64,000 bases of DNA from Candidatus Hydrogenedens sp. GTDB taxonomy: Bacteria; Hydrogenedentota; Hydrogenedentia; Hydrogenedentales; Hydrogenedentaceae. Location: positions 203,463 through 267,462 of the forward strand of contig JBMFRC010000003.1 in NCBI GenBank assembly GCA_049968235.1, in the 5' to 3' direction. Both the position numbers and the translations under genes were made by a program. Below, piece by piece: positions 1,641 through 64,000 of this stretch. The notes under the pieces were generated by a model. That model saw only the letters and a program-made list of their open reading frames with translations, made no database searches and was not told the DNA's origin. Every line of letters begins with the position of its first letter. Within the stretch, counting starts at the first letter, position 1.

Positions 1641-3041
1641 ATGTCTCAATCCGTTTATGAAAATACTACTGCCAAACATTTACTATGGGTAGAAGCCATT
1701 CGTGAAGTGTTCTATATGTCCTGGCCTATTGTGTTAGGTTCCCTTTCCTATACGGTTATGGAATTCTGTGATAAATGGATGGTCGCTCAATTAGGAACGG
1801 TATCTCTGGCGGCGGTCGGTTCTGCAGGAATATGGTCCTATACGATGAGCACATTACTGTTGGGTATTGTCGGTTGCACAGGGACATTCGTGGCACAGTC
1901 GTATGGTAAAGAAGTGTGGAAAGATTGTTCGAGGTATACATGGCAGGGAATTTATCTGGCATTGTTCTCTATCCTGTTGGCAGGGGTATTGTTCGTTTTT
2001 TCAGAGTTGTTGTTTTCATGGATGAAGCACAGTCCCGAAGTAACCCGCCAAGAACTAATTTATTTCCGTATCCGATTACTGGGCTATTTCCCGATGGCTA
2101 TGGGTTCCGCTTTAGCATCATTTTTCCCTTCTATCAACAAACCTCGTGTTCCCATGTATTCTGCCATTATAGGAAATATCTTAAATTTAATATTAAACTA
2201 TATTCTGATTTTTGGTAAATTAGGATTTCCACGGCTGGAAATAGCTGGCGCCAGTTATGCTACTGTAATCTCGCAATGGACGCAGACATTAATTCTATTC
2301 TTTCTCTTTCTGAAACCGAAATTACATCAAAAATTTGGGACACGGACATATCATCATTTTGATTTACGACGGATGAAGGAATTAATACGAATTGGGATAC
2401 CTGCGGGTCTATCTATGTTTTTAGATATTTGTAATTGGAGTATATTTACCAGTTTCATCGTAGGTAGGTTTGGAGATGTTTCCCTTGCATCCCACAATGT
2501 AGCCATCAGTTTTATGCACTTGTGTTTTATGCCTGCAGTTGCTGTGAGTATTGGTATATCTGCCATTGTAGGGCAGTGGTTGGGAAGGCGTGAAGTGCAG
2601 ATAGCCAAACAACGGGTTTATGTAGCACTGGCGCTTTGTATGGGGTATATGGTAACAATGGGTATTATTCTTGCCGTTTTTGGGGGTAAACTTATTTACC
2701 ATATATTTAGTAAAGACCCGGAGGTTGTCCGTTTTGGACATCGACTATTAATTTTGGCTGCTTTATTTCAAGCATTTGATGCCGTTAATATTATTTGTTT
2801 AGGTGCCTTGCGGGGTGCTGGCGATACCCGCTGGGTTATGTGGGCAATGGTTATCAATGCATATTGCCTTTTCCTCCCTCTGGCAATTATTATGGGCTTC
2901 ATTTTGGGTTGGGGTGCTTTTGGTTCCTGGATTTCTGCTACTATTTACATTGCTGTTTTAAGTATGACACTCATATATCGTTTCCTTTCTGAAAAGTGGA
3001 CGAAAATTATTATTTTTTCGGAACAAGTGCCAACTCAATAA
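1641..3041 (+). CDS. MATE family efflux transporter
   Basis: 466 aa, 12 predicted TM helices in a duplicated 6+6 layout typical of MATE/NorM. Confidence 0.75.
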   Translation: MSQSVYENTTAKHLLWVEAIREVFYMSWPIVLGSLSYTVMEFCDKWMVAQLGTVSLAAVGSAGIWSYTMSTLLLGIVGCTGTFVAQSYGKEVWKDCSRYTWQGIYLALFSILLAGVLFVFSELLFSWMKHSPEVTRQELIYFRIRLLGYFPMAMGSALASFFPSINKPRVPMYSAIIGNILNLILNYILIFGKLGFPRLEIAGASYATVISQWTQTLILFFLFLKPKLHQKFGTRTYHHFDLRRMKELIRIGIPAGLSMFLDICNWSIFTSFIVGRFGDVSLASHNVAISFMHLCFMPAVAVSIGISAIVGQWLGRREVQIAKQRVYVALALCMGYMVTMGIILAVFGGKLIYHIFSKDPEVVRFGHRLLILAALFQAFDAVNIICLGALRGAGDTRWVMWAMVINAYCLFLPLAIIMGFILGWGAFGSWISATIYIAVLSMTLIYRFLSEKWTKIIIFSEQVPTQ

Positions 3042-13634: not shown

Positions 13635-14291
13635 TTGAGAATACATCAGCATGTAAACCCGCTGAATAAAAAATATCTTGTTGTTCCACCGATGCCCCAA
13701 TGGTCGAATGTTTATAAGGAACCTTTTCTTCCCCTTCATCTTGATTTAGGTTCTGCGAGTGGTAAATTCTTGCTCCAAATGGCACAAAAGAATAGGGATT
13801 GGAATTATTTAGGATTGGAGATACGTGAACCGTTGGTAGAACGAGCCAATCGCTGGAAAGATGAGTTAAGACTTACCAATCTTTACTTCTTTTTTGGGCA
13901 TACGCATGTTGTTTTACATCCTCTTCTTGAAAGTTTACCTGTTGGCGTATTGCACTATGTAAGTATTAACTTTCCAGACCCGTGGTTCAAGAGACGCCAC
14001 CATAAACGGAGATTGGTTACGCCAGAACTGGTTCAGATATTGGCAAAATATTTACAGCCTGAGGGAAAGGTATTTATTCAAACCGATGTTGAAGAGTTAA
14101 GTAAGAATATTTGTGATGCCTTTGTAAATAGTTCTCATTTCCGAATTGTAAATACACCGACAGAACAAAATCCTTTTGGTATCCCGACAGAACGAGAAAT
14201 GTCTGTGGCACGATTAGGTCGTTATATATATAGAACTGTATTGGAACGGAAAATTGAAATTTTGAAAGAAATCAATCCAAACAACAATTAG
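13635..14291 (+). CDS. trmB: tRNA (guanine46-N7)-methyltransferase
   Basis: 218 aa with TrmB motifs 'LDLGSASGKFLLQMA', 'NYLGLEI' and 'INFPDPWFKRRHHKRRL'. TTG start with an upstream GGAGG. Confidence 0.85.
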   Translation: MRIHQHVNPLNKKYLVVPPMPQWSNVYKEPFLPLHLDLGSASGKFLLQMAQKNRDWNYLGLEIREPLVERANRWKDELRLTNLYFFFGHTHVVLHPLLESLPVGVLHYVSINFPDPWFKRRHHKRRLVTPELVQILAKYLQPEGKVFIQTDVEELSKNICDAFVNSSHFRIVNTPTEQNPFGIPTEREMSVARLGRYIYRTVLERKIEILKEINPNNN

Positions 14292-14300
14292 GACATAAAT

Positions 14301-16601
14301 ATGACCATGCGAGGATATTTTATCCCTTTAATTTTTCTCTTATCCTTTACAGCAATTCTTCCTTCTTTTGCAGGCGAGAAAATTAAATATCAATTAACAA
14401 TTAAGAGAGTTGGTGATGAAGGGATTGTAAATCCTGGAATTGGGACTTTCTACTATGATGCAGGGACCACTGTTTTTCTCAACGCTATTCCGACTGCAGA
14501 CTGGGCATTTGACCACTGGGAAGGTGCTGTTTCAGGGACAGACTTATTTACTCAAGTGCTGATGGACAAACCAAGGACAGTTACCGCTGTTTTTGTACCA
14601 GCACAATGGAGGCTGACCATTGAGCATAGTGGGAATGCTACCGGTACAACTTTCCCTGCTCCCGGGGTCTATGGATTTTTAGATGGTAGAACGGTAGGAG
14701 TTAGCTCTGGCACTTCGCCGGGTGTATATTTTGGAGGCTGGAGGGGTGATGTGATAAGTAATGAAGAATTTGTACAGGTGGTTATGAATTCTGACAAATA
14801 TATAAATGCACGATTCACGGATACAGGGTATACCCTTAGTATAAGTGTAATTGGTCCGGGAGGAACAACCCCCTGGCAAGGGACAGTGCATCGGTATTCA
14901 GAAGGATTATCTATATCTGTTGTATCTTATTCAACAAATCCTTTATGGCGGTTTGACCATTGGGAAGGTGATATAGGCGATAACGAATCACGATATTATA
15001 TCCTGTTGCAACTAACTATGGACCAGGACCGAAATATCACCGCGGTATTCATTGAGAAGCCATATTATAACCTTACATTGGAAATCGTTGGCGAAGGAGG
15101 TGTTTCTTTTCAACAGGGCTTTGATGACCCCGTAACTCTATCCACAGGTATCCATGAATTTAGCATTATTGAGTGGACCTATATTCGATGTGAAAAAATA
15201 ATCACTTCACCCACATGGAAATTTCTCCACTGGGAAGGAGATTTTGGTGATACATTGCCTACCTATTATCGATGTGCTTTCTCTATGGACAAAAACCGTT
15301 ATGTCCGTTGCATTTTTACCAATTTGACACAGGTCCCTGATGTTATAGGAACACCTCAAAATATCGCAGAAACGACCATTATAAATGGAGATTTGATAGT
15401 CGGTAACATTACAGAAATATGTAATGATAATTATGTATCAGGATATGTAATAGACCAATATCCACCTGCAGGGACTACTGTAGAAATAGGAAATTCTGTA
15501 TCACTCTGGGTTTCCACAGGACCTTGTCCTGTATCAGTGCCAAATCTTATCGGATTAACCATAGAAGAGGCAGAGAATGCAATAAATAGTGCCGGCTTAA
15601 CGCTGGGTAATGTGATGAACTCGTGTAATGATGAAATTGGGATGGGAATAGTATTTGGTCAAAATCCATTAGCGGGAGAGCAATTATTCCCCGGTAGTTC
15701 TGTAAATATTGAGGTATCTTCAGGACCCTGCCCGGCGGAAGGGATTATAGAAGGTGAAGGGATGGAGGAAGGTATGCCCGAAGGAGAAGGGACACCCGAA
15801 GGAGAGGTATGCGTCTGGATGGGAGCTTGTCCTAACTTTAGTTATGAAGGAATAAAAATGGGATATTTTGTCGGACAATTATGGAATAACTGCGATATTA
15901 ATCAATCCGAAATCCCCGATGCATGGGAGATAGAAATTGTTAAGTATTTGCTGTGCAATCCTCAGGGAATATGGGAGGATAAATTTATTTGTAAATTTAT
16001 TGAAAATTATAATATTCTGGCAACGGAGTCTTTATTCCATACAACTTATTATTCCTTCCGGCATATTTTAACAGGACTTCTTACTATAGGAACCAATATG
16101 GATATTTTAAGAAACACTTTCTTTCTAACCAAAAACTATTATCCATTTGAATATCCATCGGATAATTTCCCGTTATTGCCGGATGCGGATATTGATAATG
16201 ATGAATTAACTAATTATGAGGAATACCTCAGGGTAGTCGAACTTAACGGAAGTAACAATGCATTTATTCGGAACATTTTCAATCCTTCGCCTGTTCCTCC
16301 CATTCACTCCGCAGATATAAATCAGAACCATAGAATAGAGTTGACAGAACTACTTCGCATTATTCAATTCTTTAATTCTTCAGGATTCCACTGTGAAAAT
16401 GGGACAGAAGATGGTTATGCGCCGGGTTATGACGAGAGTTTCGATTTTTCATGTGAACAACACACGGCGGATTATTTGCCCCACGATTGGCATATTAGCC
16501 TTGAAGAAATTCTAAGGATGGTTCAGTTTTTCAACGCAGATGGCTATCAGATGTGTCCCTTTATTTCTGAAGATAGTTACTGTCCTATTTTCTCTGAGTA
16601 A
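14301..16601 (+). CDS. large secreted multi-domain surface protein: InlB-B-repeat-like modules, two PASTA domains, E/G-rich acidic linker, C-terminal dockerin/EF-hand-like module
   Basis: Signal peptide. About four repeats of the '(F/W)DHWEGD...TAVF' type (Listeria-Bacteroides repeat-like). PASTA-like 'VPNLIGLTIEEAENAINSAGLTLGNV...' appears twice. 'EGEGMEEGMPEGEGTPEGE' linker. C-terminus has 'DADIDNDELTNYEEY', 'DINQNHRIELTELLRIIQFFN' and 'ISLEEILRMVQFFN'. Confidence 0.6.
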   Translation: MTMRGYFIPLIFLLSFTAILPSFAGEKIKYQLTIKRVGDEGIVNPGIGTFYYDAGTTVFLNAIPTADWAFDHWEGAVSGTDLFTQVLMDKPRTVTAVFVPAQWRLTIEHSGNATGTTFPAPGVYGFLDGRTVGVSSGTSPGVYFGGWRGDVISNEEFVQVVMNSDKYINARFTDTGYTLSISVIGPGGTTPWQGTVHRYSEGLSISVVSYSTNPLWRFDHWEGDIGDNESRYYILLQLTMDQDRNITAVFIEKPYYNLTLEIVGEGGVSFQQGFDDPVTLSTGIHEFSIIEWTYIRCEKIITSPTWKFLHWEGDFGDTLPTYYRCAFSMDKNRYVRCIFTNLTQVPDVIGTPQNIAETTIINGDLIVGNITEICNDNYVSGYVIDQYPPAGTTVEIGNSVSLWVSTGPCPVSVPNLIGLTIEEAENAINSAGLTLGNVMNSCNDEIGMGIVFGQNPLAGEQLFPGSSVNIEVSSGPCPAEGIIEGEGMEEGMPEGEGTPEGEVCVWMGACPNFSYEGIKMGYFVGQLWNNCDINQSEIPDAWEIEIVKYLLCNPQGIWEDKFICKFIENYNILATESLFHTTYYSFRHILTGLLTIGTNMDILRNTFFLTKNYYPFEYPSDNFPLLPDADIDNDELTNYEEYLRVVELNGSNNAFIRNIFNPSPVPPIHSADINQNHRIELTELLRIIQFFNSSGFHCENGTEDGYAPGYDESFDFSCEQHTADYLPHDWHISLEEILRMVQFFNADGYQMCPFISEDSYCPIFSE

Positions 16602-16697: not shown

Positions 16698-17858
16698 ATG
16701 AAGAATAAACTGCTTTTTTTATGCTTATTTATTTCCCTGATAAATATGCAGTCCGCTATTCACGCGGAAGTGATTTTTGAAAAAGATTTCAAAACAAGTA
16801 GTATTCCTGAAACAAAAATTATCCGTTACAGAGTACTAAGTCATAATGACGAAAAAAAGGGCTATACTTTTTCATTTCTGGGGAAAGTTCTGAAAGGACA
16901 GGTTACTATTCAGATTGAAGATACTGAGAAAAACATTATTGAAAAAAGGGAAATTCCCGCTTTTTCTTTACTACACTGGCATTTTACATTGTCCGAAGAA
17001 AAAGGACTGGATAATATTTATATATCCTTACACCTAAAGGATATGGTTGGAAATATTTACTCCGTAGTTGTTCCCACTATACAAAGCCAGCAGGTTTACA
17101 TTGTTCAGGGGATAGTCGTATCTATGAACCTCCTTTTATTTTTCGCATGTATATATATCATCAGAAGAAAATCCCTTTATCTCTCATGGTGGGGTTGGGG
17201 AATACTGCTTGGGATTTCTGCAAAGGTTCTCTTTTATATTGTTGATTATATTGACTTTTTACCCACCACACTATTAATCAATTCTACAACCCTTGAAGAT
17301 GACCTTTCGGATTATCTTTTCTCTATCTATATCTCTTTACGGGAAACGGCTATCCTTTTCTTGATATTAGGCTTCTTCTCAAGCAGGTTATTATCGTTAG
17401 AACATAAAAAACAAATGGCTATAAGCATTTCTCTGGGTATTGCTCTTATATTCTTAACTTTCACCATTTTTGAGGGAGTATTACGAACATTTCAAATTAT
17501 GCCATCATTAAATATATCTCCCTATTCCCTGGCTCTCTTTTCTGTGCAGATAGCACGAACACCCTTTTATTACTTCCTCATTCCATTAAAAAATATAATT
17601 CTATTGATATTATGGTTTAGTGCTTTTTATCTAGCACTATCCGGTGCAATACAGGCAGAAAGAAGAACGGTAATTCGCGGAATATTAATATTTATCTTCA
17701 CAGAAGCAGTGCTCGTCTATTTTGAAAATTCCTATTTCATCTATCATAACTCCAGTTGGTGGGTTGTAGTTTCGGTATTAGTAATTAGTTTTTTCCCTGT
17801 GTTCATTTACAAATTCAAAACGTTTATATACGCCGAACCATCTCCCATCAAAAAATAA
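16698..17858 (+). CDS. membrane protein with N-terminal extracytoplasmic domain plus 7-8 TM helices (7TMR-DISM-like, no cytoplasmic output domain)
   Basis: Signal peptide, ~120-aa periplasmic domain, then seven to eight hydrophobic helices. The protein ends shortly after the last TM. Confidence 0.45.
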   Translation: MKNKLLFLCLFISLINMQSAIHAEVIFEKDFKTSSIPETKIIRYRVLSHNDEKKGYTFSFLGKVLKGQVTIQIEDTEKNIIEKREIPAFSLLHWHFTLSEEKGLDNIYISLHLKDMVGNIYSVVVPTIQSQQVYIVQGIVVSMNLLLFFACIYIIRRKSLYLSWWGWGILLGISAKVLFYIVDYIDFLPTTLLINSTTLEDDLSDYLFSIYISLRETAILFLILGFFSSRLLSLEHKKQMAISISLGIALIFLTFTIFEGVLRTFQIMPSLNISPYSLALFSVQIARTPFYYFLIPLKNIILLILWFSAFYLALSGAIQAERRTVIRGILIFIFTEAVLVYFENSYFIYHNSSWWVVVSVLVISFFPVFIYKFKTFIYAEPSPIKK

Positions 17859-20382: not shown

Positions 20383-21588
20383 TTATTCATAGCGCAGGGC
20401 TTCAACGGGGTCAACACTTGCCGCTTTCAAAGCAGGATATACACCGGAGATAACACCGACAGCAGAACTGAAAAGGAAAGCAGTCATTACAGACCATAAG
20501 GATAGACCTATAGGTAAGTTGGGGTAAAGGGCACGGATAATGGCGGAACCCATAAAACCGAGAAAGATACCGGTCATCCCACCGAGAACACTAAGGGTGA
20601 TGGATTCAACGAGAAATTGCAAACCAATATCGGTACGGGTGGCTCCTACTGCCATACGAATACCCACTTCACGTGTGCGTTCCCGCACGGATACTAACAT
20701 AATATTCATAATTCCAATGCCACCTACCAGTAGCGATATGCATGCGATACCTACTAACATAAGTCGAAGCATACTGAAAATTCGTGAGAAAGCGGAAAGC
20801 ATACTATCTTGATTTGTAATGGTAAAATCTTCTTCGTTATCGTGAGCAGAACGGACGATTTTTCGTGCTGATTCTGTAGCACGGGGAATATCTTCCTGTG
20901 TGCGTGCACCTATAAGAATTTCCATGACTTCTTCGACATTAAAAATGCGTTGTGCACTGGGTAGAGGGATAATAACAATATCTCCGAGGTCAATCCCCAA
21001 TGCCATTCCGCGTTCTTCTAAGATGCCCACAACGGTATGTTTTGAACCGTTGATTGAAATTTTTTCATACAAAGCACGGTGTGTTCCGAACAATTCTTTT
21101 TTTACAGTTGTTCCGATGATGCAGACACGGCTATTGCGTTCAATATCTTCTTCCGTGAGGAAACGACCTATTTGTGTGTATAATTGGCGAACTTTCTCAA
21201 AGTCCGGGGTTGTGCCGATAAGTAAAACATTCCGCTGACGATTTTTATATCGGATATTGGCTAATCCTAATGTGTTGGAAGCCACACCGATGATACCGGG
21301 GACTTTCCGTTTTACCTGTCGGGCAATTTCATAAGTAAGTTTTTTGTGACTTCCCGCACTGATGGGAAACATACCTGTTGTTTCTTGTTTACCGGGGGTA
21401 ATAATGATGACATTGCTACCCATAATGGCGAATTCCCGTTCTACATAGGCTTGTGCAGACTCTCCTAAGGCAATTAACAATATTACAGACATAACCCCAA
21501 TGATTACCCCTAATGCGGTCAATGCGGCACGCATTTTGTTCTGATTCAGTGCAATGATAGCGGATCGTATAAGTTCCCAGAAAGACAT
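20383..21588 (-). CDS. ABC transporter permease, FtsX/MacB/DevC family
   Basis: 401 aa. N-terminal TM, large periplasmic domain (MacB_PCD-like), and three C-terminal TMs (FtsX domain). Confidence 0.8.
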   Translation of the reverse strand: MSFWELIRSAIIALNQNKMRAALTALGVIIGVMSVILLIALGESAQAYVEREFAIMGSNVIIITPGKQETTGMFPISAGSHKKLTYEIARQVKRKVPGIIGVASNTLGLANIRYKNRQRNVLLIGTTPDFEKVRQLYTQIGRFLTEEDIERNSRVCIIGTTVKKELFGTHRALYEKISINGSKHTVVGILEERGMALGIDLGDIVIIPLPSAQRIFNVEEVMEILIGARTQEDIPRATESARKIVRSAHDNEEDFTITNQDSMLSAFSRIFSMLRLMLVGIACISLLVGGIGIMNIMLVSVRERTREVGIRMAVGATRTDIGLQFLVESITLSVLGGMTGIFLGFMGSAIIRALYPNLPIGLSLWSVMTAFLFSSAVGVISGVYPALKAASVDPVEALRYE

Positions 21589-21593
21589 TACGA

Positions 21594-22841
21594 TTACTCT
21601 CCAAGTGAGGGAACGATTTTGATTCTAACTCCGTCTGTCAATCCTTTAATTCCAACGGAAGTAATTATGGTATCGCCTTCTTTCAATCCTTCCACAATTT
21701 CACGTGTTTCCCAGTTCCCGATACCTAAAGTTACCGGTTTACGAACAGCACGGTCTCCTACTACCACATAAGCAAATTCATCGCGGATAAGGCTTTCACT
21801 TGGGACATAAAGGACATTATCTTTTTCAGATACGATTACCGTTACATCCGCAGACATTCCTGCAAGGAAATTGCCCTGTTCCAGAAATCGAACCTTTACT
21901 GTAAAGGTTCGAGTAAATTCCTTTGTAATGGTAATTACTGGGGATATTTCAAATATTTCACCCATAAAAACCTGTCCCGGGAAGGCGTCTAATTCAATCC
22001 TTGTCTTTTGGTTCAATGAGATTTGTCCTGCATTGGCTTCGTCAAAAGGTGCTTCAATGTATAGGTCAGAATTGTCAAGCAGATACATTAGAGGCACGCC
22101 GATAGCAATACCTTCTCCTTCATGCACATTGATGGTGGCAACAACCCCATCGAAGGGTGCTTTAATAATGGCTTTATCTCTAATGGCTCTGGCTGAATTT
22201 AAAGCAGATTCCGCCTGTATGATGGCGGTTTCTCCCGCTTTTACTTCTTGTTCACGAACTTGTAGTTCTTTTACACTCGTGAGGGCAGATTGGTATGCCT
22301 CTTTTGCCACCTTGTAAGCCAGTTCCACTTTTTCCTGTTCTCCTGGTGAGAGAATTCCCTGTTCACGAAGTTTTTTAGCACGTTCTAAATCCGATTCCGC
22401 TTGCTTTAATTGTGCTTGCGTTTGATTGATTTGTGATTCAGAAAGATTTTTAGCCACCTCATAACCGACGCGTGCTTGTTCCAGTCGTGTCTTTGCAACG
22501 AGCAGGTTTGCTTCAGAAAGGGCTACCTGTGCGTCAAGGTCTTCATGGCTTAATTCAATAAGAATTTCATCTCTGGCAACATGTTGTCCTTCCTTTACAT
22601 GAACCTTAGAGATGATACCCATCATTCCGCTTGCAATCATCGAGCGACGATGTGCCATAATTGTTCCGGAAGCGAAAGCGGAAACCGTTTGCTGGACCTT
22701 CCCCTTCTTTACAGTATCTACGGTAACCTGTATTGGCGATGTGTAGAAAAAGAAATAATGAACTATACCTGCTACGATTAAAGCGAGAATGAATAAGAAG
22801 ATTAATCGGATTAGGTAATTTTTGTAATTTACTTTTGCCAT
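21594..22841 (-). CDS. efflux periplasmic adaptor subunit (HlyD/MFP family, MacA/DevB-like)
   Basis: N-terminal TM anchor, long coiled-coil hairpin, beta-barrel 'biotinyl-like' ends. Overlaps the upstream ATPase gene by 13 nt. Confidence 0.8.
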   Translation of the reverse strand: MAKVNYKNYLIRLIFLFILALIVAGIVHYFFFYTSPIQVTVDTVKKGKVQQTVSAFASGTIMAHRRSMIASGMMGIISKVHVKEGQHVARDEILIELSHEDLDAQVALSEANLLVAKTRLEQARVGYEVAKNLSESQINQTQAQLKQAESDLERAKKLREQGILSPGEQEKVELAYKVAKEAYQSALTSVKELQVREQEVKAGETAIIQAESALNSARAIRDKAIIKAPFDGVVATINVHEGEGIAIGVPLMYLLDNSDLYIEAPFDEANAGQISLNQKTRIELDAFPGQVFMGEIFEISPVITITKEFTRTFTVKVRFLEQGNFLAGMSADVTVIVSEKDNVLYVPSESLIRDEFAYVVVGDRAVRKPVTLGIGNWETREIVEGLKEGDTIITSVGIKGLTDGVRIKIVPSLGE

Positions 22842-23527
22842 TCGTCTGATATTACCTTTCCATCTCTGAAGTGAATAATTCGTTGGGCACGAGACGCTAC
22901 ATCTTTTTCATGTGTAACCATGACAATAGTATGTCCTTTGCTATGTAATTCATCAAATAATTCAAGGATACTTTCCCCGCTTGCTGTGTCCAGATTTCCT
23001 GTGGGTTCATCTGCTAATATTGTGGAAGGATTGTTTATCAGTGCCCGTGCAATAGCCACGCGTTGTCGCTGACCTCCGGAAAGTTCGTTGGGTCTGTGAT
23101 ACATACGGTCTCCAAGCCCAACGGCGATTAATGCCTCTTGAGCCCGTTGCCTTCGTTCTTTTCGTGGAACACGGTCATATATGAGAGGTAATTCCACATT
23201 TTCTAACGCAGTAGCACGACTTAATAGGTTAAAATTTTGAAAAACAAAACCTATCTCATGATTTCGCAGTTCTGCAAGTCGCATTTCAGAAAATTTATGA
23301 ACCTCTTCACCTTTATACCAATAGGAGCCTGCGGTAGGTCTGCTAAGACATCCTAAAATATCAAGGAAAGTTGTTTTCCCTGAGCCGGAAGGACCCATAA
23401 TTGCAACATAAGACCCCGCATCAATTGTCAAATCAACACAGTTTAAGGCTATAACTCTATTGTCACCGACTTCATAAACCTTTTCAAGATTTTGCACATA
23501 AATTAATCGAGACAAACTTTCGCTCAC
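22829..23527 (-). CDS. ABC transporter ATP-binding protein (MacB/LolD-like)
   Basis: Walker A 'GPSGSGKTT', signature 'LSGGQRQRVAIARAL', Walker B 'ILADEPTGNLD', H-loop 'VTHE'. Confidence 0.9.
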   Translation of the reverse strand: MSESLSRLIYVQNLEKVYEVGDNRVIALNCVDLTIDAGSYVAIMGPSGSGKTTFLDILGCLSRPTAGSYWYKGEEVHKFSEMRLAELRNHEIGFVFQNFNLLSRATALENVELPLIYDRVPRKERRQRAQEALIAVGLGDRMYHRPNELSGGQRQRVAIARALINNPSTILADEPTGNLDTASGESILELFDELHSKGHTIVMVTHEKDVASRAQRIIHFRDGKVISDEWQK

Positions 23528-23574: not shown

Positions 23575-25056
23575 TTATTTGTTTAAAAATCCTTTGGGTA
23601 ACTCAGCAGGTGGCTCATATTTATAAGGTTCAATATCGGGAACTATGCGAACAGGTGTTGTAAAGGTGAAAGTGGTATTATCCGGTCCGGGAAAACTCAT
23701 TTCAATAAGGTATGCTTTCCATCCTTTTTCCGGAGGATTTACTTTCCCAACATAGACGCCTTTTTCTTGCTCCGTTAGTTCCTTTGCCTGATAGGCTTTG
23801 CCAAGAACATTTAAACGGAAGTCCCGTGCTTCTGGATTGGTGGCTTCCCATAAAGTAACTTTACCGGGTTTATCTTTTGTCCTGACTACAATAGTACAAT
23901 CATCTGGAAATTCCCAGGAATATTGCGGAAGAGGTTTTTTCATAACAATAGCCTTGTAGAATGCAGATACACTGCTGACAACTTCTGGTTTAAGTCCATG
24001 ACCTGTATTCGGCACATATCGGATATATGTAGGTGCAGGTAGGTCTGCAAGATAAAATTTCCATGAATCTGGCAGGAAAAATTCATCACCTGCGGAATTA
24101 ATGATGAATTTGGGCATGGTTAGTCTATTAAGGTAACTATACGGGTCAACAATCTTCAACATGGCTGAAAATTCAGGAGTGGTTAACCAGTCCATAATAT
24201 TCATTTCTACATAATCATCTATTGCGGGAGCCCAACCTCCATATACCGCATAGTGATGTTTAAATGAGGGGACTAAATTTAGTAAATCAATAACCATGGG
24301 TACACATGCCACTACTCGTTTATCTACGATAGTAGTTGTCCATGTGGTCCAGCCGCGTTTGGAAGCACCTGCTACTACAAATTCATTTACTTTCACTTTT
24401 CCGCCTTCTTTACTTGCACAAAATTCCTGCACGGTATCCATAGCCCGAACGACCGCTTTTGTCATCGGCATACGTGTTAACCATTCCGCTTCTCCTGTTT
24501 TCAAATATTTATCCCAATTATATGCGATAATAGCGTCTTCGCTACGCTTTCTGTCGTTATCATTTGCAAAGACCAGAGGTTGATTCGGTATTTGCTTTAT
24601 TTCCGCCACTACAGTTTGCACATCTTTGGCTATTGTTCGTAATAAGGGACTAGAAGATGTCGGCGGTTCATCACTATTTCCCCCACCGGAAATAATAAGT
24701 AATGCGGATGAATACTTCACCTTTTTAGGAACAACAATTGTTAGCCAGTGTGTCCAGATGGGACGGTCAACTTCTTCAGGAGAACGCCAACTCTGGGAAG
24801 TGAGATGAATGTAATAAATAGTGAATTTGTCCGCTTGTTCTGTTTTTACAAGTTTATAACTGTAATTGGGGTCAGGTTTATAAACATAGGTATCCAGGGG
24901 GCCCGGATTTTTTGTTTCTCGGGCATTTGTAGAAGCAATAACCTTTTGTGATTCTGATATAGGTGCTTTTGTCGCACAGCCAATAACAGAAGTAACAAGC
25001 AAGATAGACAGTAATATGGACAATAATTTCTTACTATTTAAAATCCGTTGTATCAT
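23575..25056 (-). CDS. secreted PhoPQ-activated pathogenicity-related (PqaA-like, PF10142-type) protein
   Basis: 493 aa with signal peptide. A 'GASKRGWTTW' motif is recalled from this family; assignment is from memory of the family only. Confidence 0.4.
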   Translation of the reverse strand: MIQRILNSKKLLSILLSILLVTSVIGCATKAPISESQKVIASTNARETKNPGPLDTYVYKPDPNYSYKLVKTEQADKFTIYYIHLTSQSWRSPEEVDRPIWTHWLTIVVPKKVKYSSALLIISGGGNSDEPPTSSSPLLRTIAKDVQTVVAEIKQIPNQPLVFANDNDRKRSEDAIIAYNWDKYLKTGEAEWLTRMPMTKAVVRAMDTVQEFCASKEGGKVKVNEFVVAGASKRGWTTWTTTIVDKRVVACVPMVIDLLNLVPSFKHHYAVYGGWAPAIDDYVEMNIMDWLTTPEFSAMLKIVDPYSYLNRLTMPKFIINSAGDEFFLPDSWKFYLADLPAPTYIRYVPNTGHGLKPEVVSSVSAFYKAIVMKKPLPQYSWEFPDDCTIVVRTKDKPGKVTLWEATNPEARDFRLNVLGKAYQAKELTEQEKGVYVGKVNPPEKGWKAYLIEMSFPGPDNTTFTFTTPVRIVPDIEPYKYEPPAELPKGFLNK

Positions 25057-52536: not shown

Positions 52537-55500
52537 TCATTTTGGAGGACCGGTTGTTGAGCCAAGCACACCCCCACCTAATTTGAGCAAATCCACCAAT
52601 ATTTTACGCGGTATATCAATAACACGGAAGGCTTCTGTTGTAATTTCCGCTGCACCACTGACCAGTGTAACTACGAGGGGGGGTAATTCTTTGACCTGTC
52701 CCTTAGGGCTAAATGAAGGTCCATGAACACGGAAACCTAATTGTATCGGATTCTGGATAATCTGATGTCCACGAATATTAAAACTATCTCGAATTACGGC
52801 TATTTGCGAAGCCAGTTGGGGTGATAATGTTACAGATAAATCATAATCCATATCGCCATCAATAATGAACTGTCCACTACCATTTATCTGCAAGCCTTCT
52901 GAACGGAATTGGACATTCGGAGTTTTGACGAGGTCTTTTTCCATCTGGACATCGCTTGTAAAGGTATAGAAGGGCAGGGTTGCGGGAAAATTTGTAGGGG
53001 ACATTTCCGGAGCAAATCGGCTGAGAAAAAGGTCAGTCTTCACTTTCCCATTAACTACCTGGAAGGACCCTTTTCCGGATAGAGTATTGGAGTCATCCAA
53101 ATCCAGTGAGTATTCTACATTCCCTGTGCAATTACCTTCCATAGCCTCCGGCAGATTTAGATGGCGAACAAGATAAATAACGGGAATGTTTTTCCATTGG
53201 GCTTTCAAAATACTCAAATTTTCAGGAGAAGTAACGGAATAGCTACCTTCTAATGTTCCATCTCCAACCTGAGCAGAAAAACGGTCTAATCCTGAAATTT
53301 GTGGTTTGTCATAAGCAATTCCCTTGAAGGAAGTTCCTTCCCATGGACTCATGGTTATCTTATCTGCATTTAAGGCAAAGGTCCAGTATTCCGGTGCTGA
53401 AGGGGGTTCTTTTTTTCGTATTCGTTCTGCCTCTGCTTCTTCTTTTGAACGTAAAGGTAACAACCATTTCACCCCGATTGGAGGGATATTTGCTTCTTTG
53501 GCAGTGATTGTGAAAGTGCGTGTGCGATTATTCAGGTCTCGTTCATCAATAAACGCCTGGAGTGATATGCCTTTTGCTTCCAGAGGAATGTCTGTTCCCT
53601 TCGCAAGGAAGGAAGCCCAATCAATATCCATTCCAATCCGCATGGTTTCCCCATATTTTTCTGTTCGTGTCTTCTTCTCCCAGAGGAAAGAACCATTTGT
53701 TGCGATGCCCCCTCGACCTTCATACGGGACACGCAAACACTTGCTTGCGGTATTAACATCTAATGCTTTTGTAGTTACATTTACTCTTCGCAGATTGAAT
53801 TTCTTATTGTAGTAAGCATATTCAAACTTTGCATCCAATGGTGTCGATTCCAGCAAAGCGGAACCTTCTATTGTTAATGTTTTTTGAGGAACGAAAGTAA
53901 TATTTAAATTAGGGATTGTCGCCCCGATACCGGAATGTTTACGAAACCACCACTGGAAACTTACATCAGCAGAGGTTAATTCTGCATTTAATTGGGTTGT
54001 TATTTTTTCCGGGTGATAATCTATAACTGCCTGAAAAGTGGCACTTCCTGCTAAAGAGACATCATCATCTTCTTTTAAAAAGGGTAGTTTTTCCAGAGTA
54101 TTCAATGTTCCACTAATGGTAAAGTTCCCTACTTTCTCTGCAACTTTATAAATTCCTTTTGCTGTAATGGGGGAATTGTTATAAATCCCTGACAACGAAT
54201 CTACCGTTATTTTATCTGTATCCAGAATACAGGTTGCAGAAATTCCATCTATTTTGACCTTCAAAGGAGCATACTCAATAACACCTTCTTTAAGGACTAA
54301 TGTCCCTTGTGGTAATTTGCCTGCTGTTGCCCAGCCTACTTTCACCAATTCCAGTTTAGCACGGAGTGAAGGGAGTTCCGGACGAGTTGGTGTAAATTCT
54401 AATGTTCCATTGGTTACATCGGCTAATGCCTCCAAAATAGGTTTAGAAAATGGCCCCCGAATCCCCAAACGCAAATTATTTAACTGGTCAAAACTTAATA
54501 CAAAATCGCCATAAGGTTTTATCTGTTGTTGTGTTAGAGAAGTAATAATATCCTCCAGCGGTATTTTACGAACTTCCAATGTTAGGTCTAATTCAGGAAT
54601 AGGTTTATCAAGGAAGAGCAACCCTGAAAGACTTCCATCGAATTGCGGAGAAGTAATATCTGCTGTAGTGATTCGCAAACGCTTTTCCGATAACTTCAAA
54701 TCTGCCAGAGCCATAATTTCTCCCGTTATTGTTTGAAAAGGGATATCTGGCGATTTAGCTTTGATATTTTCAAAAGGTGCTTCTACCGCAATAATCAATG
54801 TCTGATTGGGGTATCCTGCCACGCGCAACGAAGGCGTTATAGAACCTTCCGGATACAGGAAATCAGAAAAAGGAAGAAGTTTTTCCAACTGTGTTAACAG
54901 GATCTTATCACTGGAGGCTCGAACATCAAAATCTTCGATAGAACGAAATCGGACATCCAGATTGATTGTATTTTCTTCTGGAATCTCCGGCAGATAAGAA
55001 ACCGTCGTTTCTACTTTTGCTCGGAATTCCGAAGAATCTGCGAAACGATAACAGTCAAATTGTAATTTTTTCAACTGCAATTCATGCTCCGGAATAAGTC
55101 CAAAAATAGAAATATTATTCCTTTCTCCAACAACACGAAACGAAATATCCTTCCAATCTATGGAAGTGTTTCCCTTTGAAGATTTTCGTATCTCTTCCCA
55201 GAAGGATGGGTCTTCAATATTTACTTTTATATCCGACTGGCTAACTTCAATACGGTCGAAACTCCATTCACCATAAAGTAAATTAATCCAGTTTACATGT
55301 ACTATTGTGCGTGGAATGGTCATATCTGCCTTCATTCCCTTATAATCCACACGAAGGGAAATGTCATCAATTCGAAGCCCTCGTAATCCATTGGGGAGAA
55401 TTCTACCTACAGAAAGTTTCCCATTTACTTTTTGGCTTATTTCTTGCTCAAAATTTGACTTCAATGCTAACAGTTTATACCGAGCATACAGGAAGCCCCC

Positions 55501-55548
55501 GGATAATAAAAGGGCAAGTAAGATAAAAAGTATGGAAATAAGACGCAA
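52537..55548 (-). CDS. AsmA/TamB-like outer-membrane biogenesis family protein
   Basis: 1003 aa. Single N-terminal TM anchor followed by a long predominantly beta-sheet periplasmic region. N-terminus resembles AsmA. Confidence 0.45.
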   Translation of the reverse strand: MRLISILFILLALLLSGGFLYARYKLLALKSNFEQEISQKVNGKLSVGRILPNGLRGLRIDDISLRVDYKGMKADMTIPRTIVHVNWINLLYGEWSFDRIEVSQSDIKVNIEDPSFWEEIRKSSKGNTSIDWKDISFRVVGERNNISIFGLIPEHELQLKKLQFDCYRFADSSEFRAKVETTVSYLPEIPEENTINLDVRFRSIEDFDVRASSDKILLTQLEKLLPFSDFLYPEGSITPSLRVAGYPNQTLIIAVEAPFENIKAKSPDIPFQTITGEIMALADLKLSEKRLRITTADITSPQFDGSLSGLLFLDKPIPELDLTLEVRKIPLEDIITSLTQQQIKPYGDFVLSFDQLNNLRLGIRGPFSKPILEALADVTNGTLEFTPTRPELPSLRAKLELVKVGWATAGKLPQGTLVLKEGVIEYAPLKVKIDGISATCILDTDKITVDSLSGIYNNSPITAKGIYKVAEKVGNFTISGTLNTLEKLPFLKEDDDVSLAGSATFQAVIDYHPEKITTQLNAELTSADVSFQWWFRKHSGIGATIPNLNITFVPQKTLTIEGSALLESTPLDAKFEYAYYNKKFNLRRVNVTTKALDVNTASKCLRVPYEGRGGIATNGSFLWEKKTRTEKYGETMRIGMDIDWASFLAKGTDIPLEAKGISLQAFIDERDLNNRTRTFTITAKEANIPPIGVKWLLPLRSKEEAEAERIRKKEPPSAPEYWTFALNADKITMSPWEGTSFKGIAYDKPQISGLDRFSAQVGDGTLEGSYSVTSPENLSILKAQWKNIPVIYLVRHLNLPEAMEGNCTGNVEYSLDLDDSNTLSGKGSFQVVNGKVKTDLFLSRFAPEMSPTNFPATLPFYTFTSDVQMEKDLVKTPNVQFRSEGLQINGSGQFIIDGDMDYDLSVTLSPQLASQIAVIRDSFNIRGHQIIQNPIQLGFRVHGPSFSPKGQVKELPPLVVTLVSGAAEITTEAFRVIDIPRKILVDLLKLGGGVLGSTTGPPK

Positions 55549-58393: not shown

Positions 58394-61300
58394 TTATGGA
58401 CTTTTCTGAACGCTAAATGTGAATTTAGGACCGAAAAGAGCGCGATTAAAACTCTCCATAGTTAATTGCACGGACGGATTGTTATTCACGGGAATTTCAA
58501 AGTGGAAAGCGGTTGTTTCTCCGCGTTTTAGCGATTTATTTAACGGGACTTGTTGCTGTTTTTGTCCGCTACATATAAGTAAAGAGACATTACCTTCCGA
58601 CAAGTCTTGTTTTGAACCTGCAATCCATTCAGCCTCCCCTAAATTGGTGCATATCACCCGTAACTTTATTTTCTCTGTTTCCTTCGGCAATCGGATTATA
58701 TCGCCTTTATAAACAACTTTTTCCTCTGGATTATTTATCCATACGACAGAGTCAAAAAATGCATCTAAATATTTAGGGGGATTGCTACTGTTATAGGGGA
58801 CATTACCTACCGCTAATAAAGGACAATTTCGTGAATTTGTTCCTGTTGCTTCACTTACTAATTTTGGATTTTTCCCTTCTTCTATCAACCGCCAGAATGT
58901 TTCTTTAATATTGTTATAAATACCATAAACACCCATCGAAGTCTTATCACGGTCAATTTTTATTTCGCAATCATAAGGCTGAAATTTCTGTTTATGAAAA
59001 ATTTTTGTATGTTCCTTTATAACCGTAGTAGCGGGACGATAGGTCCCATCCGGATTAATAATTCCATAATCACTTTTCTCGTTTACACGATAGCCACCGG
59101 GATACCACCAGAAATAGACCCCGTCAGAACCACTTCGGGATAGCATTTTATAAAAATCCGTGAAAAAGTCTGCCTGAAACTTTAATGCACGCTGAGTTTG
59201 TTCCTCATTTTTTCGATAGACACTATATCCTATCTCTGCCCAGATTAAGGGTATATCGGGATTGCAAAATGTGCCATATTTTACCTGAAACCAGCCCGGT
59301 TTGACCATCTCCCAGTTCCCAATTCTACCATAGGCTTCCGGCTCGAGTATATCTACTGCCTGCGACAAGTAATACCAATCATACGGAAGTGGATTTGCCC
59401 AATTGTTGGTAGGATTGGAGCCTTCTGTCATACGGAAACTTACCGCATGATTTGTATCTACAGAACGGACTAATGTCCTTGCTCGATTGTAATATTCGTA
59501 CAGGAGTGTATCCAGAAAACGGCGATACGCACATACCATGACGCGCCATTCGCCATCGTTTGTCATCATCTTATCGGTGGGGTTTGTGATATTCCCATTC
59601 TCATCTCGCTGTATGGGATATTTCCAGTCCTTTTCTGCATTTTCAATAGAGCCATATCGTTCTGTTACCCATCCCGCCCATTCCTTGTCCCAACGTTTTC
59701 TCCCTTCGTGTCCCGGAAACATAGGTTCCCATGCTAAATCATAAGCGAACACCTCATCATGCTCCGATAACCGATAATACTCTATCATTTCCTTTATTTT
59801 ATCCCACTCAAAGTCAAAGGGTGTGCCAGGTCGCAAAGATAAATTGACCTTCAATCCTAACCGGTCTGCACGATACAACAAATCAAGCAGGTTCTGGTCT
59901 TTCATTACATCGTGATACTGAAATACACTGATGGAATTCAGCCCTATTCCCGCAATCCGTTCTAAATCGCGTTGAATAACCCATGGATCGTATGCTTCTG
60001 CTCCCATCCAATATTCGAAATAATGCCACCACTCTACACCTATTCCTGAGGAAGGCATATAGTTTACCCCATGCGGACACCAACGCTTCCCACGATAGAT
60101 AAAATCACCCCGCTTCACCTTGACAAATTCTTTTTTTGTTCGTGGTTTCCAGCAATTTAACTCGTGATATACATAATCTTTGGTTTCCCCATTTACAATA
60201 AGATAACATTCCACCCTGACATTGTCCCCTGCAATTTGCGGATAAGGGATACTTTCTTCAATTCGAGATATTTGCTGTTTGCCCGGTTGGATAGGCAAAT
60301 CATCTTTCCATAATACTTTGCCACTGTTACCCCGTAATAGCAATTGTATATCTGCATTCGGATAATCCGCATCAGATGTCATAAGAACAGTAGCCCCCAT
60401 CGGTAACTCCTGGTCCGAAAAAACAGTGTAATAAGAACATCCCCCATCAACAAAAAAAACACCCTCCCTTAATTTTTTAATCCATTCGGAAAAGTAGTTA
60501 ACAAATTGTTCGCATAAATACCATTCTGGGTCCTGAACAGCAAAACAGGCTTGAACAGAATTTTTATAAGGTTCATTATTGTATATCATCATTGCGGAAA
60601 TAGTCCCACGATAATCCTTTCCCTTGCCCCAGGCATGCATTAACGGGACCCATCGCCATGAACGACGCTTATCAAAACCTCCACCACGAGGACGAGGATG
60701 AATTAATAAAAATTGTTTAGGAACAGGCATCGTCACTTCTTTTAGAGCTAACTCTGTATCCGTTGAAACGAAATGAACATTATTTGATGTATAAAATTTA
60801 TATTCCGGATAGAACAGTTCTAATTTAGGTAGATCTGTCGTCTGTAGGAGTATTTGATACTGCGGTGTCATCGGTGCAGTGCCCAATCCTGCAAACCAGA
60901 ATTCATGCCTGCCACCCGCGATAGGCGAATGGCTCATTGTTAAGCCTATATAAACCTTAACTGCGTTTTGTGGGTTAAATGTCGTTCTTGAACGCGAAGG
61001 AGATTCCCACAACTTAAATCTATCCGGTGTCAGTACATAAAACTGCCAGTCTGTGCTTAATGGAACAGATGTAATCCATCGCGAACCATCTTTCTCTCGC
61101 CATTCAACAGTGAGATAATCTGTTGTCTTAGTCCCTCTGGCAAAAAAAACGGTAACTTGATGATTATCCGGAAACGGATTTTCCAGAGCGGGAGACGCAA
61201 AAATATCCCAGCCTTTCATATCTATAATAAAAGCATGAAAGCCGTGGAAAGTTTGGTTCGGGATAATATCGTTTAATGGCTGATATTCAAAAACGACCGG

Positions 61301-61955: not shown

Positions 61956-64000
61956 CATGTGGGGGAAAAACTATACGGAATGGCTGGTCATACTCTTACC
62001 GGCTCTTTTTATAACATCAACATTATTGGCACAGGAAAAAATCCTTTCAGGAACAAGCCTGTATGCACAGGTTGATAGAAATAAAATAAAAGCAGTCATT
62101 GATGATTTACCTAAAACAACATTCCGATTAACAATAACTCATAGTGGGGATGCTACAGGGACTACTTTCCCGGGTCCGGGTGTTTATGAATATTCCTCTG
62201 GACAAACAGTAGGGATTAGCGTTGCAACCTCCGATGGCGTTTATTTCGGCGGTTGGTCCGGTGACTCAGCAGGTTCCAGTGAGTTTATACAGGTGGTAAT
62301 GGACCGTGATAAAACGGTGGATGCCCGATTTACCAGTACGGGACACATACTAAATATTTATATTGAAGGGGAAGGAGGAACAACTCCGGGTCCCTTCGGA
62401 AATCCACATCGGTACTCAAGCGGTTTATATATCGATATAACAACTTACCAAACAAACCCATTGTGGCGATTTGAACACTGGGAAGGTGACATTGGTGAAA
62501 ATGACCCCAGAAGTTATGTTATCTATAACCTGCTAATGGACCAGGACCGTAATATAGCCGCAGTGTTCATCGAAAAACCATATTACGACTTAACAGTAGA
62601 AATCATAGGAGAAGGAAATGTCTCTCTACAGGAAGGTTATGAAACCCCCATCATTCTAACCCCAGGTGTGCATACATACTCCTACCTCGAATGGACATAT
62701 ATCCGCTGTGAAAGAATAGAAACAAACGAAGATTGGAAATTTCTTCGATGGGAAGGGGACTTTGGGGATACCTTGCCAACATATTTCAGATGCAGTTTCT
62801 CAATGGACAAAAACAGATACATCCGCTGTATATTTACCAATAATACTCAGGTCCCTAATGTGGTCGGTATCACTCAATCTAGTGCAACTACTGCTATTAC
62901 CAAAGCATGGTTAACTGTCGGGGAAATTACCGAGATTTGCAATGATGAATATCCTTCCGGGTATGTTGTCGACCAGGACCCGCCCGCAGGTACAACAGTA
63001 GAAATTAATACTCCCGCAGCACTCTGGGTATCCTCCGGTCCCTGTCCAGTACCCGTCCCAAATGTAATGGGGAAAACTCAAACAGAAGCGGAAGACGACA
63101 TCACCTTAGCAGGATTAATTTTAGGAAATGTATCCGAGCAATGTAATGACGAAGTGGAACAAGGTAAAGTAATTAACCAAAACCCTCAACCCGAAGAATT
63201 AGTGCCACCCGGTAGTCGCGTAGATATTGTGCTTTCCTCCGGTCCCTGTCCTATCACCGTGCCAAATATTGTCTGGCAATTTCAACAGGATGCAGAAACG
63301 ATAATAGCCAATGCGGGATTAGCCGTAGGGATAGTAACCGAGCAGTGTGATGACACCATACCAGATGGCAGAGTAATAAGCCAGAATCCATACGCCGGAA
63401 CACAGGTTCCACCTGGCACAGCAATCAACTTTACCGTTTCCACCGGTCCGTGTCTGGTAACTGTCCCCAATGTGGTGCAATATTCACAAACAATAGCAGG
63501 ACAAATACTTACATCCGCAGGACTAACCGTTGGCAATATTAGCCTGCAATGCCATAATAGTATTCGGACTGGACTCGTAATAAGCCAATCCCCATCAGCA
63601 GGCGAAAAAGTGCTACCAAACAGTGCTGTAGACCTTATCATTTCCTCCGGACCATGCATAGAAGGCTCACCCGAAGGAACCACAGAGGGCGAAGGTTTTG
63701 TTGAAGGGACTCCCGAAGGAACACCTGATGGTGAAGGGACAGTTGAAGGAACAACAGAAGGTAATGCCGAAGGTGAAGGCACCGTCGAAGGTACAACGGA
63801 AGGTATATCCGAAGGTAGTGCTGATGGCGAAGGTACCGTGGAAGGAGCAGTAGAAGGCGAAGGGACTAACGAAGGAGCCACTGAAGGTGAAGGTATGGCA
63901 GAAGGTGAAGGAGAAACACCATCACATAGTGCAGACCAAAATGGAGATTGGCAGATAAATCTACCCGAGTTATTACGCGTGATACAATTTTTCAATATAC
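61956..64000 (+). CDS. paralog of the 14301..16601 surface protein, 3' partial: InlB-B-repeat-like modules, four PASTA domains, E/G acidic repeat, start of dockerin-like module
   Basis: 'MWGKNYTEWLVILLPALF' signal. 'FEHWEGDIGENDP...AAVF' and 'FLRWEGDFGDTLPTYFRCSFSMDKNRY' repeats. Four PASTA-like 'VPN(V/I).G...A...(L/I)...GL..G......C.D' units. '(T/A)EGEG' repeats. 'DQNGDWQINLPELLRVIQFFN' at the window end. Absent from the ORF track because it has no stop within the window. Confidence 0.6.

Follow-up and report, generated by a model that had tools for sequence, protein, structure and literature searches.

Type I dockerins (PF00404) are small, protein-binding terminal modules, which one organism may attach to a wide range of secreted proteins, and an Asp at position 12 is characteristic of their calcium loops. 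Pairs of EF-hands commonly dimerise, the PASTA domain of penicillin-binding proteins (PBPs) and Ser/Thr kinases is linked to muropeptide binding in some of the kinases, and SLH domains and sorting signals are terminal tags shared by diverse secreted proteins. Hydrogenedentota are a globally distributed, uncultured phylum, and the published work on them that we found concerns metabolism, not the cell surface. Non-cellulosomal cohesin- and dockerin-like modules are already known as a phenomenon (Peer et al., 2009, as cited in PMC10066038). Here we analyze a stretch of 64,000 nucleotides from Candidatus Hydrogenedens sp. (contig JBMFRC010000003.1, positions 203,463 to 267,462; hereafter the window), in which one open reading frame (ORF) encodes a secreted multi-domain protein, the target, whose last 100 residues or so constitute an undescribed terminal Ca-loop module, probably for docking or anchoring. 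A sequence-only reading of the window had proposed a giant protein with a signal peptide, InlB-type B-repeats, PASTA domains, an acidic linker and a Cys-containing C-terminus; every one of these parts is present, while "giant" has to be dropped for a protein of 766 amino acids. Within its large family, which has not been described before, the target is unexceptional.

Results

The protein ends in a conserved two-loop module

Each of the two module units is made of a Ca loop, a 12-residue helix and a hairpin closed by Cys, with the unit consensus HSADxNxDxxIxLSELLRVIQFFNSGGYHCxxGTEDGYAPGxGDxxC. Conservation was read from column statistics over 283 instances of the module. In loop 1, D1 is found in 100% of them, N/D3 in 90%, D/N5 in 95%, I8 in 87% and E12 in 100%; loop 2 (D-Y-N-P-Q-D-W-x-I-x-L-S-E) is as conserved and one residue longer, and position 12 is Glu in 99-100% of the instances in both loops. 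Cys31 and Cys48 (module numbering) are 96-97% conserved and Cys82 and Cys90 about 75%, the corresponding pairs in the target being 698/718 and 752/761. Conservation is about 90-100% for a His three residues ahead of each loop and for an E-D-G that follows each helix, and the aromatic residues Y29, Y39, Y55, W60, Y79 and F/Y89, together with the E-D-G motifs, reach 96-100% across distant lineages. From these patterns we infer that the module binds Ca2+ and that its Cys pairs form disulfide bonds. The three Ca-loop-like segments that the sequence-only reading had pointed out in the C-terminal region are confirmed, and the tail does have loops of the EF-hand type.

The AlphaFold2 (AF2) model of the module, built from a 70-sequence alignment, is very confident and contains the Ca loops (predicted local distance difference test, pLDDT, 94.9; predicted template modeling score, pTM, 0.84). 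It has helices at residues 20-31 and 73-83, nothing helical ahead of either loop and no transmembrane (TM) helix. Neither the 2025 copy of Pfam nor NCBIfam release 20 holds the module.

The module family is large, terminal and carried by diverse secreted proteins

The motif LLRxIQFFN, already proposed as a signature from the sequence, occurs twice in the target and once more in the paralog at the 3′ end of the window. It is no chance motif, as it defines a family of at least 3000 clusters: an exhaustive profile search of 1.84 billion representatives of 50%-identity clusters returned at least 3000 proteins at E≤1e-3, and the stricter limits of 1e-10 and 1e-30 left 2555 and 1050. A word-indexed search gave 605 proteins, of which the named ones belong nearly all to Candidatus Hydrogenedentes/Hydrogenedens, the outliers being one Kiritimatiellae protein and one from a "Paceibacterota" metagenome-assembled genome (MAG). 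In reference contigs with one genome per species we found at least 587 module loci; to the best 80 of these, four MAGs contribute 20, 18, 17 and 9. Dozens of modules are also present in MAGs labeled "uncultured Nitrospirales bacterium" (L001, L005, L008, L009, L012, L014 and others; L- and P-numbers are our own handles), from the record series CAZJTZ01, CAYXPO01, CAYYRW01, CAZZMK01 and CAYMLC01. A second phylum behind these labels was considered and rejected, given that L001, which is so labeled, is a syntenic ortholog of the Hydrogenedentota locus; the label of this MAG series looks wrong.

The placement of the module is strongly biased: of 130 full matches, 120 lie at the very C-terminal end of the protein and nine directly after an N-terminal signal peptide, for example in the FGE-sulfatase-family proteins P0006 and P0015. 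A single C-terminal module is the rule (100 of 140 cluster representatives), and some of the others carry two to four. P0141 (2552 amino acids) has four, P0142 (356) and P0149 (657) have three each, and counted as module matches P0141, P0142, P0149 and P0190 show three to five per protein; P0142 is little else than a signal-peptide-like start and three tandem modules. Such multi-module proteins could be adaptors, cross-linkers or fused gene calls.

The domains attached to the module are those of extracellular proteins. In 65 representatives Pfam recognized Bact_surface_Ig-like, Flg_new_2, Beta_helix, Ig_3, CHRD, PKD, InlK_D3 and FGE-sulfatase domains, as well as Chlam_PMP, HYR, PASTA, peptidases M14 and M4, NHL and FG-GAP. 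Of 91 module ORFs, 20 have a Cys-braced PASTA domain immediately ahead of the linker and module, and 12 have B-repeats as well, up to 16 per ORF. The combination of B-repeats, PASTA and module, which had been put forward as an unknown architecture, is therefore common in the phylum. Another arrangement is seen in L083 (5036-7810, minus strand), where a protein of 924 amino acids with repeated EF-hand pairs, EGEGEG linkers and a terminal module adjoins the dockerin/cohesin operon described below.

The module lies outside the dockerin family

The C-terminal region had been taken for a dockerin-like tail. We found no match to Dockerin_1 at E≤10, either with the whole protein or with isolated C-terminal pieces, and a comparison of the module profile with the CelS and CelD dockerins (hhalign; both sequences verified beforehand against the PDB) aligned just 16 columns, namely the Ca loop, with a probability of 9.6%. 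Dockerins were the top structural matches of the module model, with scores below significance, and Foldseek returned the same ranking at an E of about 1 and a target-normalised TM-score of about 0.5, again below significance. When the module sequence profile was run against PDB sequences nothing significant was obtained, the best matches being EF-hand pairs such as hippocalcin (E 0.17). The model does have the duplicated Ca loop plus helix, without an entering helix, that makes a dockerin F-hand, yet the Asp expected at loop position 12 of a dockerin is replaced by Glu. As for EF-hands, loop 1 has the ligands at positions 1, 3, 5 and 12 and the hydrophobic residue at position 8, and loop 2 departs from this pattern by its one-residue insertion; EF-hand_6 scored 13.3 bits against a cut-off of 25 (E 0.076), no entering helix was found, and few relatives pass the EF-hand_6 cut-off (loop 1 of P0142, for example, at 26.2 bits). 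The module does not behave as a C-terminal sorting signal of the PEP-CTERM, MYXO-CTERM, LPXTG or type IX secretion system C-terminal domain (T9SS CTD) kind either, because N-terminal, internal and multiple modules occur and a TM helix is lacking. None of the NCBIfam sorting-signal models matches the target, whose sole NCBIfam match is in the PASTA region. Since the dockerin profile tests failed, we conclude that the module combines a dockerin-like topology with EF-hand-type loops and does not belong to the dockerins as a family.

The module alternates with known attachment elements in cohesin paralogs

From the supposed dockerin tail a cohesin-like partner had been deduced. The lineage does have cohesins, and some of them are fused to the module: P0020 combines a signal peptide, a cohesin above the Pfam threshold and a module, P0016 and P0019 have the same composition with the cohesin just below the threshold, and a local cohesin hidden Markov model (HMM) recognized cohesins in P0158, P0213, P0242 and L076, which like the others are small proteins of a signal peptide, a cohesin and a module. 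In three independent contigs a gene for a cohesin-plus-module protein is clustered with canonical Dockerin_1 genes and two to three further single-cohesin genes, and the neighboring cohesins there end in a TM helix and a basic tail. In two cohesins, one each in L081 and L083, a CGC/GCGCG motif precedes the TM tail, which is reminiscent of MYXO-CTERM-type signals.

Variants of this cluster, recovered by a metagenome scan with a closer subset of the cohesin alignment, delineate a conserved, non-cellulosomal operon that encodes, in order, a canonical dockerin protein of ~170 amino acids, a dockerin protein of ~430 amino acids (dockerin N-terminal, TSP3-like Ca repeats C-terminal) and three single-cohesin proteins. 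The third gene, for a short cohesin, exists in two forms. In L087-L092, L095 and L096 it has a TM anchor, and in L081, L083, L093, L097-L099 and L101 it has the module; in L095 and L096 a canonical dockerin forms the end of a different cohesin of the operon. By similarity of the cohesin domain, the best cross-variant matches of the module-bearing third-gene cohesins are the TM-anchored ones. Membrane anchor, canonical dockerin and module are thus interchangeable C-terminal elements of one protein family, and the module therefore sits where known attachment elements sit. No other observation speaks as strongly for its being an attachment device. The operon contigs range from 37 to 65% GC, and the module-variant clusters L097-L099 and L101 have 37-38%, like the window.

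Only single-cohesin proteins were seen in the operon contigs, with no multi-cohesin scaffoldin; a cohesin profile run against a database of 5.8 billion proteins gave six short matches, too few for a scaffoldin census. A module-bearing cohesin could be an adaptor, its module docking on the membrane-anchored cohesins by analogy with hierarchical cellulosomes; alternatively, the receptor of its module could be something else, either a protein or a glycan. Canonical dockerins and the module share genomes elsewhere as well: in L060, a low-GC MAG, a canonical dockerin-like ORF (1667-2125, plus strand; local HMM E 2.4e-11) lies directly upstream of a gene for a protein with the helical middle domain (see below) and the module.

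Domains of the target protein

The features of the target, of its paralog and of the operon are collected in Table 1.

Table 1. Coordinates of the features discussed in the text (window positions unless a contig handle is given).
Feature	Residues	Nucleotides	Strand	Description	Basis
Whole target ORF	1-766	14301..16601	+	766 aa plus stop; secreted multi-domain protein	ORF list, Pfam, orthologs
Signal peptide, Sec-type	1-24	14301..14372	+	...PSFA/GE; no lipobox Cys	Read by eye
B-repeats (Flg_new_2)	27-341	14379..15323	+	Four divergent InlB B-repeat units	Pfam PF18998, self-alignment
PASTA domains	343-410, 411-478	15327..15734	+	Two domains	Pfam PF03793, Cys positions
Linker	479-502	15735..15806	+	E/G-rich, low complexity	Sequence
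Middle domain	504-664	15810..16292	+	All-alpha, lineage-specific family; two EF-hand-type loops
Middle-domain loop	532-543	15894-15929	+	EF-hand-type
Middle-domain loop	630-641	16188-16223	+	EF-hand-type
Connector NPSPVPP	661-667	16281..16301	+	Pro-rich; overlaps last residues of middle-domain model
Terminal module (putative attachment)	668-766	16302..16598	+	Two units of ~48 aa	Alignments, column statistics, AF2
Module loop 1	672-683	16314-16349	+
Module loop 2	724-736	16470-16508	+
Paralog		61957..64000	+	Cut by window end; signal peptide, B-repeats, four PASTA, ~90-aa (E/T/G)-rich linker, module
Conserved operon		L081 8021-12659; L083 7866-12562; L086 1141-6670; also L087-L099, L101		Dockerin and single-cohesin genes

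The signal peptide, MTMRGYFIPLIFLLSFTAILPSFA, would be cleaved before GE. Both family assignments made earlier for the N-terminal half exceed the Pfam thresholds: Flg_new_2 matched the target in three stretches (E 2.3e-16, 60 bits, cut-off 23.6) and PASTA in two, the better one covering positions 1-64 of 64 (E 5.5e-26, 90.7 bits, cut-off 23.2). Self-alignment places the four B-repeat units at residues 27-100, 101-174, 175-253 and 254-341, with invariant W and G positions. Each PASTA domain closes with S(T/S)GPCP and has a conserved Cys pair (374/409 and 442/477). The NCBIfam model of PASTA kinases, NF033483 (PknB_PASTA_kin), aligned with residues 343-478 only and scored 81.2 bits against a cut-off of 450, so the target is no equivalog of these kinases. 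It is best explained as an adhesin-like protein without enzymatic function that a Hydrogenedentota bacterium exports through Sec.

The linker reads AEGIIEGEGMEEGMPEGEGTPEGE; among 92 relatives whose sequence extends far enough upstream, 28 have a similar and often far longer linker ahead of the module. Beyond it, a single Cys-containing region of ~250 amino acids had been described. The region is there and does contain Cys, but it consists, as its relatives show, of two independent domains of ~160 and ~100 amino acids. The C-terminal 263 residues alone gave sub-threshold Pfam matches only, to DUF7515 (E 0.13) besides the EF-hand_6 match mentioned above; the same query retrieved 22 database proteins, two of which span it entirely and the others only its last ~100 residues, and in relatives such as P0003 and P0007 the two domains are held apart by long linkers. 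The first of them, the helical middle domain with two EF-hand-type loops, is a protein family of its own. One of its loops is a fourth Ca-loop-like segment, DINQSEIPDAWE, in addition to the three recognized before. The alignment used for its structure prediction contained database proteins only, and pLDDT is low where the model ends, at the Pro-rich connector. In our searches the middle domain had neither a Pfam or NCBIfam family nor a solved structural relative. It is often arrayed in tandem, with six, four and three copies seen among P0201, L045, L071 and L011.

Genomic context

The window holds two copies of the module. In the second, that of the paralog, the module starts at nucleotide 63922, straight after the linker and without a middle domain. 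The divergent neighbor of the paralog (58394-61789, minus strand, 1131 amino acids) matched no Pfam family at E≤1e-3.

Housekeeping genes surround the target (GAPDH, PGK, PNPase, M16 peptidase and TrmB). In line with the Hydrogenedentota origin of the window, a Ca. Hydrogenedens MAG contains an M16 peptidase with 72% identity to the adjacent one here. Two syntenic orthologs, L001 (58% identity over 745 amino acids) and L002, keep the order TrmB, target and multi-TM protein. In the window the stop codon of trmB, the gene for a tRNA m7G methyltransferase, is located 9 bp upstream of the start codon of the target (14291-14301). Because of this spacing and of the adjacency kept in L001, co-transcription of the target with trmB is suggested; a scan for promoters and terminators remained within shuffle expectation and was uninformative on operon structure. 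Downstream of the target is an ORF of 386 amino acids (16698-17858, plus strand) with a signal peptide, an extracytoplasmic part of ~125 residues and multiple TM helices. It is kept directly downstream of the target orthologs, at 38% identity in L001 and 25% in L002, and neither it nor its ortholog has a Pfam match at E≤10.

Other genes of the window encode an AsmA/YhdP-like protein of 1003 amino acids, below the Pfam cut-offs (52537-55548, minus strand), and a MacB/HlyD/ABC efflux set (20383-23527, minus strand), and as far as the gene content goes both are suggestive of a diderm envelope. A PhoPQ_related (PF10142) gene at 23575-25056 (minus strand) has a counterpart near the operon in L081. 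No canonical dockerin gene was found in the window.

Discussion

In our preferred reading, to which we give a rough probability of 45%, the module serves as an attachment tag, and its docking site is a common protein receptor in the cell envelope. The target would be exported by Sec, and its domains would fold with Ca2+ and disulfides outside the cytoplasm. Its B-repeats and disulfide-braced PASTA pair would then form "cargo and stalk", displayed as an adhesin-like surface protein, and would be followed by the flexible E/G linker, the helical two-Ca-loop domain and, finally, the 100-residue address tag. Loaded with Ca2+, the module would dock on the envelope receptor and tether the target, and the same tether may hold dozens of module proteins per genome, among them Ig/PKD/beta-helix adhesin-like proteins, peptidases, FGE-sulfatase-family and lipase-like proteins. 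The best receptor candidates would be the membrane-anchored single-cohesin proteins of the dockerin/cohesin operon. Extended to a phylum-wide display system in a diderm phylum, perhaps shared by neighboring lineages, with the module docking on these very proteins in a hierarchical, cellulosome-like manner, the proposal becomes doubtful.

Several observations weigh against docking on a protein receptor and against the cohesins in particular. The canonical dockerins encoded beside the cohesins are their more obvious ligands, and because of them the case for cohesin binding by the module, and with it the partner deduced in the sequence-only reading, is weakened. Neither a cohesin nor any other candidate receptor is encoded in the window itself, the genes there are no more than suggestive of an outer membrane, and the support as a whole is computational. 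Moreover, many module residues hardly vary between lineages whose GC content spans 37-65%, which binding to an invariant ligand other than a protein could likewise explain.

This last point leads to a tentative and rather unlikely alternative, in which the module anchors to a non-protein envelope polymer, be it lipopolysaccharide, a capsule or S-layer glycan, or peptidoglycan, and acts like SLH, LysM or the Ca2+-dependent lipopolysaccharide-binding domain of S-layer proteins. Terminal placement, diverse cargo, expansion and the substitution for a TM anchor fit it equally well; extreme conservation of key residues, aromatics included, suits an invariant ligand; the tandem modules of P0142 and P0149, three in each, resemble SLH and LysM arrays; and PASTA directly upstream of the linker and module, as counted above, fits as well. 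Yet the sole structural neighbors of the module are protein-binding dockerins, and it resembles no carbohydrate-binding family in Pfam or NCBIfam. We think it improbable that the module needs no dedicated receptor, being instead an element of self-association or of a Ca2+-dependent lattice, or else a Ca2+-dependent folding cap. The dimerisation of EF-hand pairs, to which the sub-threshold hippocalcin match relates, the multi-module proteins and the second Ca-loop domain ahead of the module in the target speak for such a role, but a cap whose only task is stabilization would have little reason to lie at termini beyond long flexible linkers or to stand in for the TM anchor or dockerin of cohesin paralogs.

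A sorting or secretion signal, possibly removed like a T9SS CTD, PEP-CTERM or MYXO-CTERM, would account for the mostly C-terminal position, the very diverse secreted cargo and the large expansion in one phylum, as well as for the alternation, in the cohesin paralogs, with signal-like TM-plus-basic tails, some of them after CGC/GCGCG. We nevertheless find it very improbable: about 7% of the modules are at the mature N-terminus, others are internal or repeated, the module is a folded Ca-loop domain with predicted disulfides and no TM helix, and sorting-signal models do not match the target. That some proteins carry two to four modules, as sorting signals do not, in turn supports a binding module. 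Hardly credible, finally, is genuine membership of the dockerin family, with the module bound to a cohesin of a scaffoldin as part of a multi-enzyme complex like the cellulosome. The structural ranking of dockerins and the presence of cohesins in module-bearing lineages agree with it, but the module failed the tests of sequence membership, the cohesin proteins are single-cohesin ones with no scaffoldin seen, the same operons already encode canonical dockerins, and the cargo is mostly adhesin-like repeats rather than glycoside hydrolases.

The module, the helical two-loop domain and the operon variants all went unmentioned in Pfam, NCBIfam release 20 and such literature as could be searched, and we came across no earlier literature account of dockerins or cohesins in Hydrogenedentes or of PASTA/B-repeat proteins in the phylum. 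One tag on thousands of secreted proteins defines the exported and presumably displayed proteome of this phylum, and annotation gains a handle in a new domain family, plus a second one in the helical two-loop domain. The link to the operon gives concrete receptor candidates, and the operon itself is a natural example of cohesin-dockerin-type assembly outside cellulose degradation. If the proposal is true, a single display system would fix dozens of adhesin-like proteins and hydrolases to the envelope of each cell, and a docking module of 100 residues with predicted Ca2+ and disulfide stabilization could serve as an orthogonal tag for protein assembly.

Comparison with known systems

The target shares with PASTA PBPs and Ser/Thr kinases (PBP2x, PknB/Stk1) its two bona fide PASTA domains. 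Unlike these enzymes it has no transpeptidase or kinase domain, and its PASTA domains have a conserved Cys pair and form a stalk beside the linker and module. Similarly, the module resembles a pair of EF-hands (EF-hand_6/7 clan) in having two loops, the first of the form D-x-[DN]-x-[DN]-x-x-I-x-x-x-E, but these are about 50 residues apart and lack an entering helix in the model, and the module is extracytoplasmic and contains Cys pairs. With SLH and the sorting or anchoring signals (PEP-CTERM, MYXO-CTERM, T9SS CTD) it has in common that it is a terminal tag of diverse secreted proteins, expanded in one lineage, and that it stands in for a C-terminal TM/basic anchor in the cohesin paralogs; it differs from them in sequence and fold, in the absence of a TM segment and in that it may be N-terminal, internal or repeated. 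The type I dockerin differs in more respects. Homology to it is not detectable in the sequence beyond the Ca loop, the module units have about 48 amino acids where those of dockerins have about 22, Glu takes the place of Asp at loop position 12, loop 2 is one residue longer, and each unit adds a conserved E-D-G hairpin with a predicted disulfide and a His three residues before the loop. In addition, the module comes from a probably diderm candidate phylum in which it occurs alongside canonical dockerins. Still, the likeness to the dockerin is considerable, as the core of the module is a duplicated Ca-loop-plus-helix F-hand without an entering helix, the module is small, terminal and placed behind flexible linkers, it occurs on a wide range of secreted proteins within one organism, and at the C-terminus of cohesin paralogs its place can be taken by a canonical dockerin.

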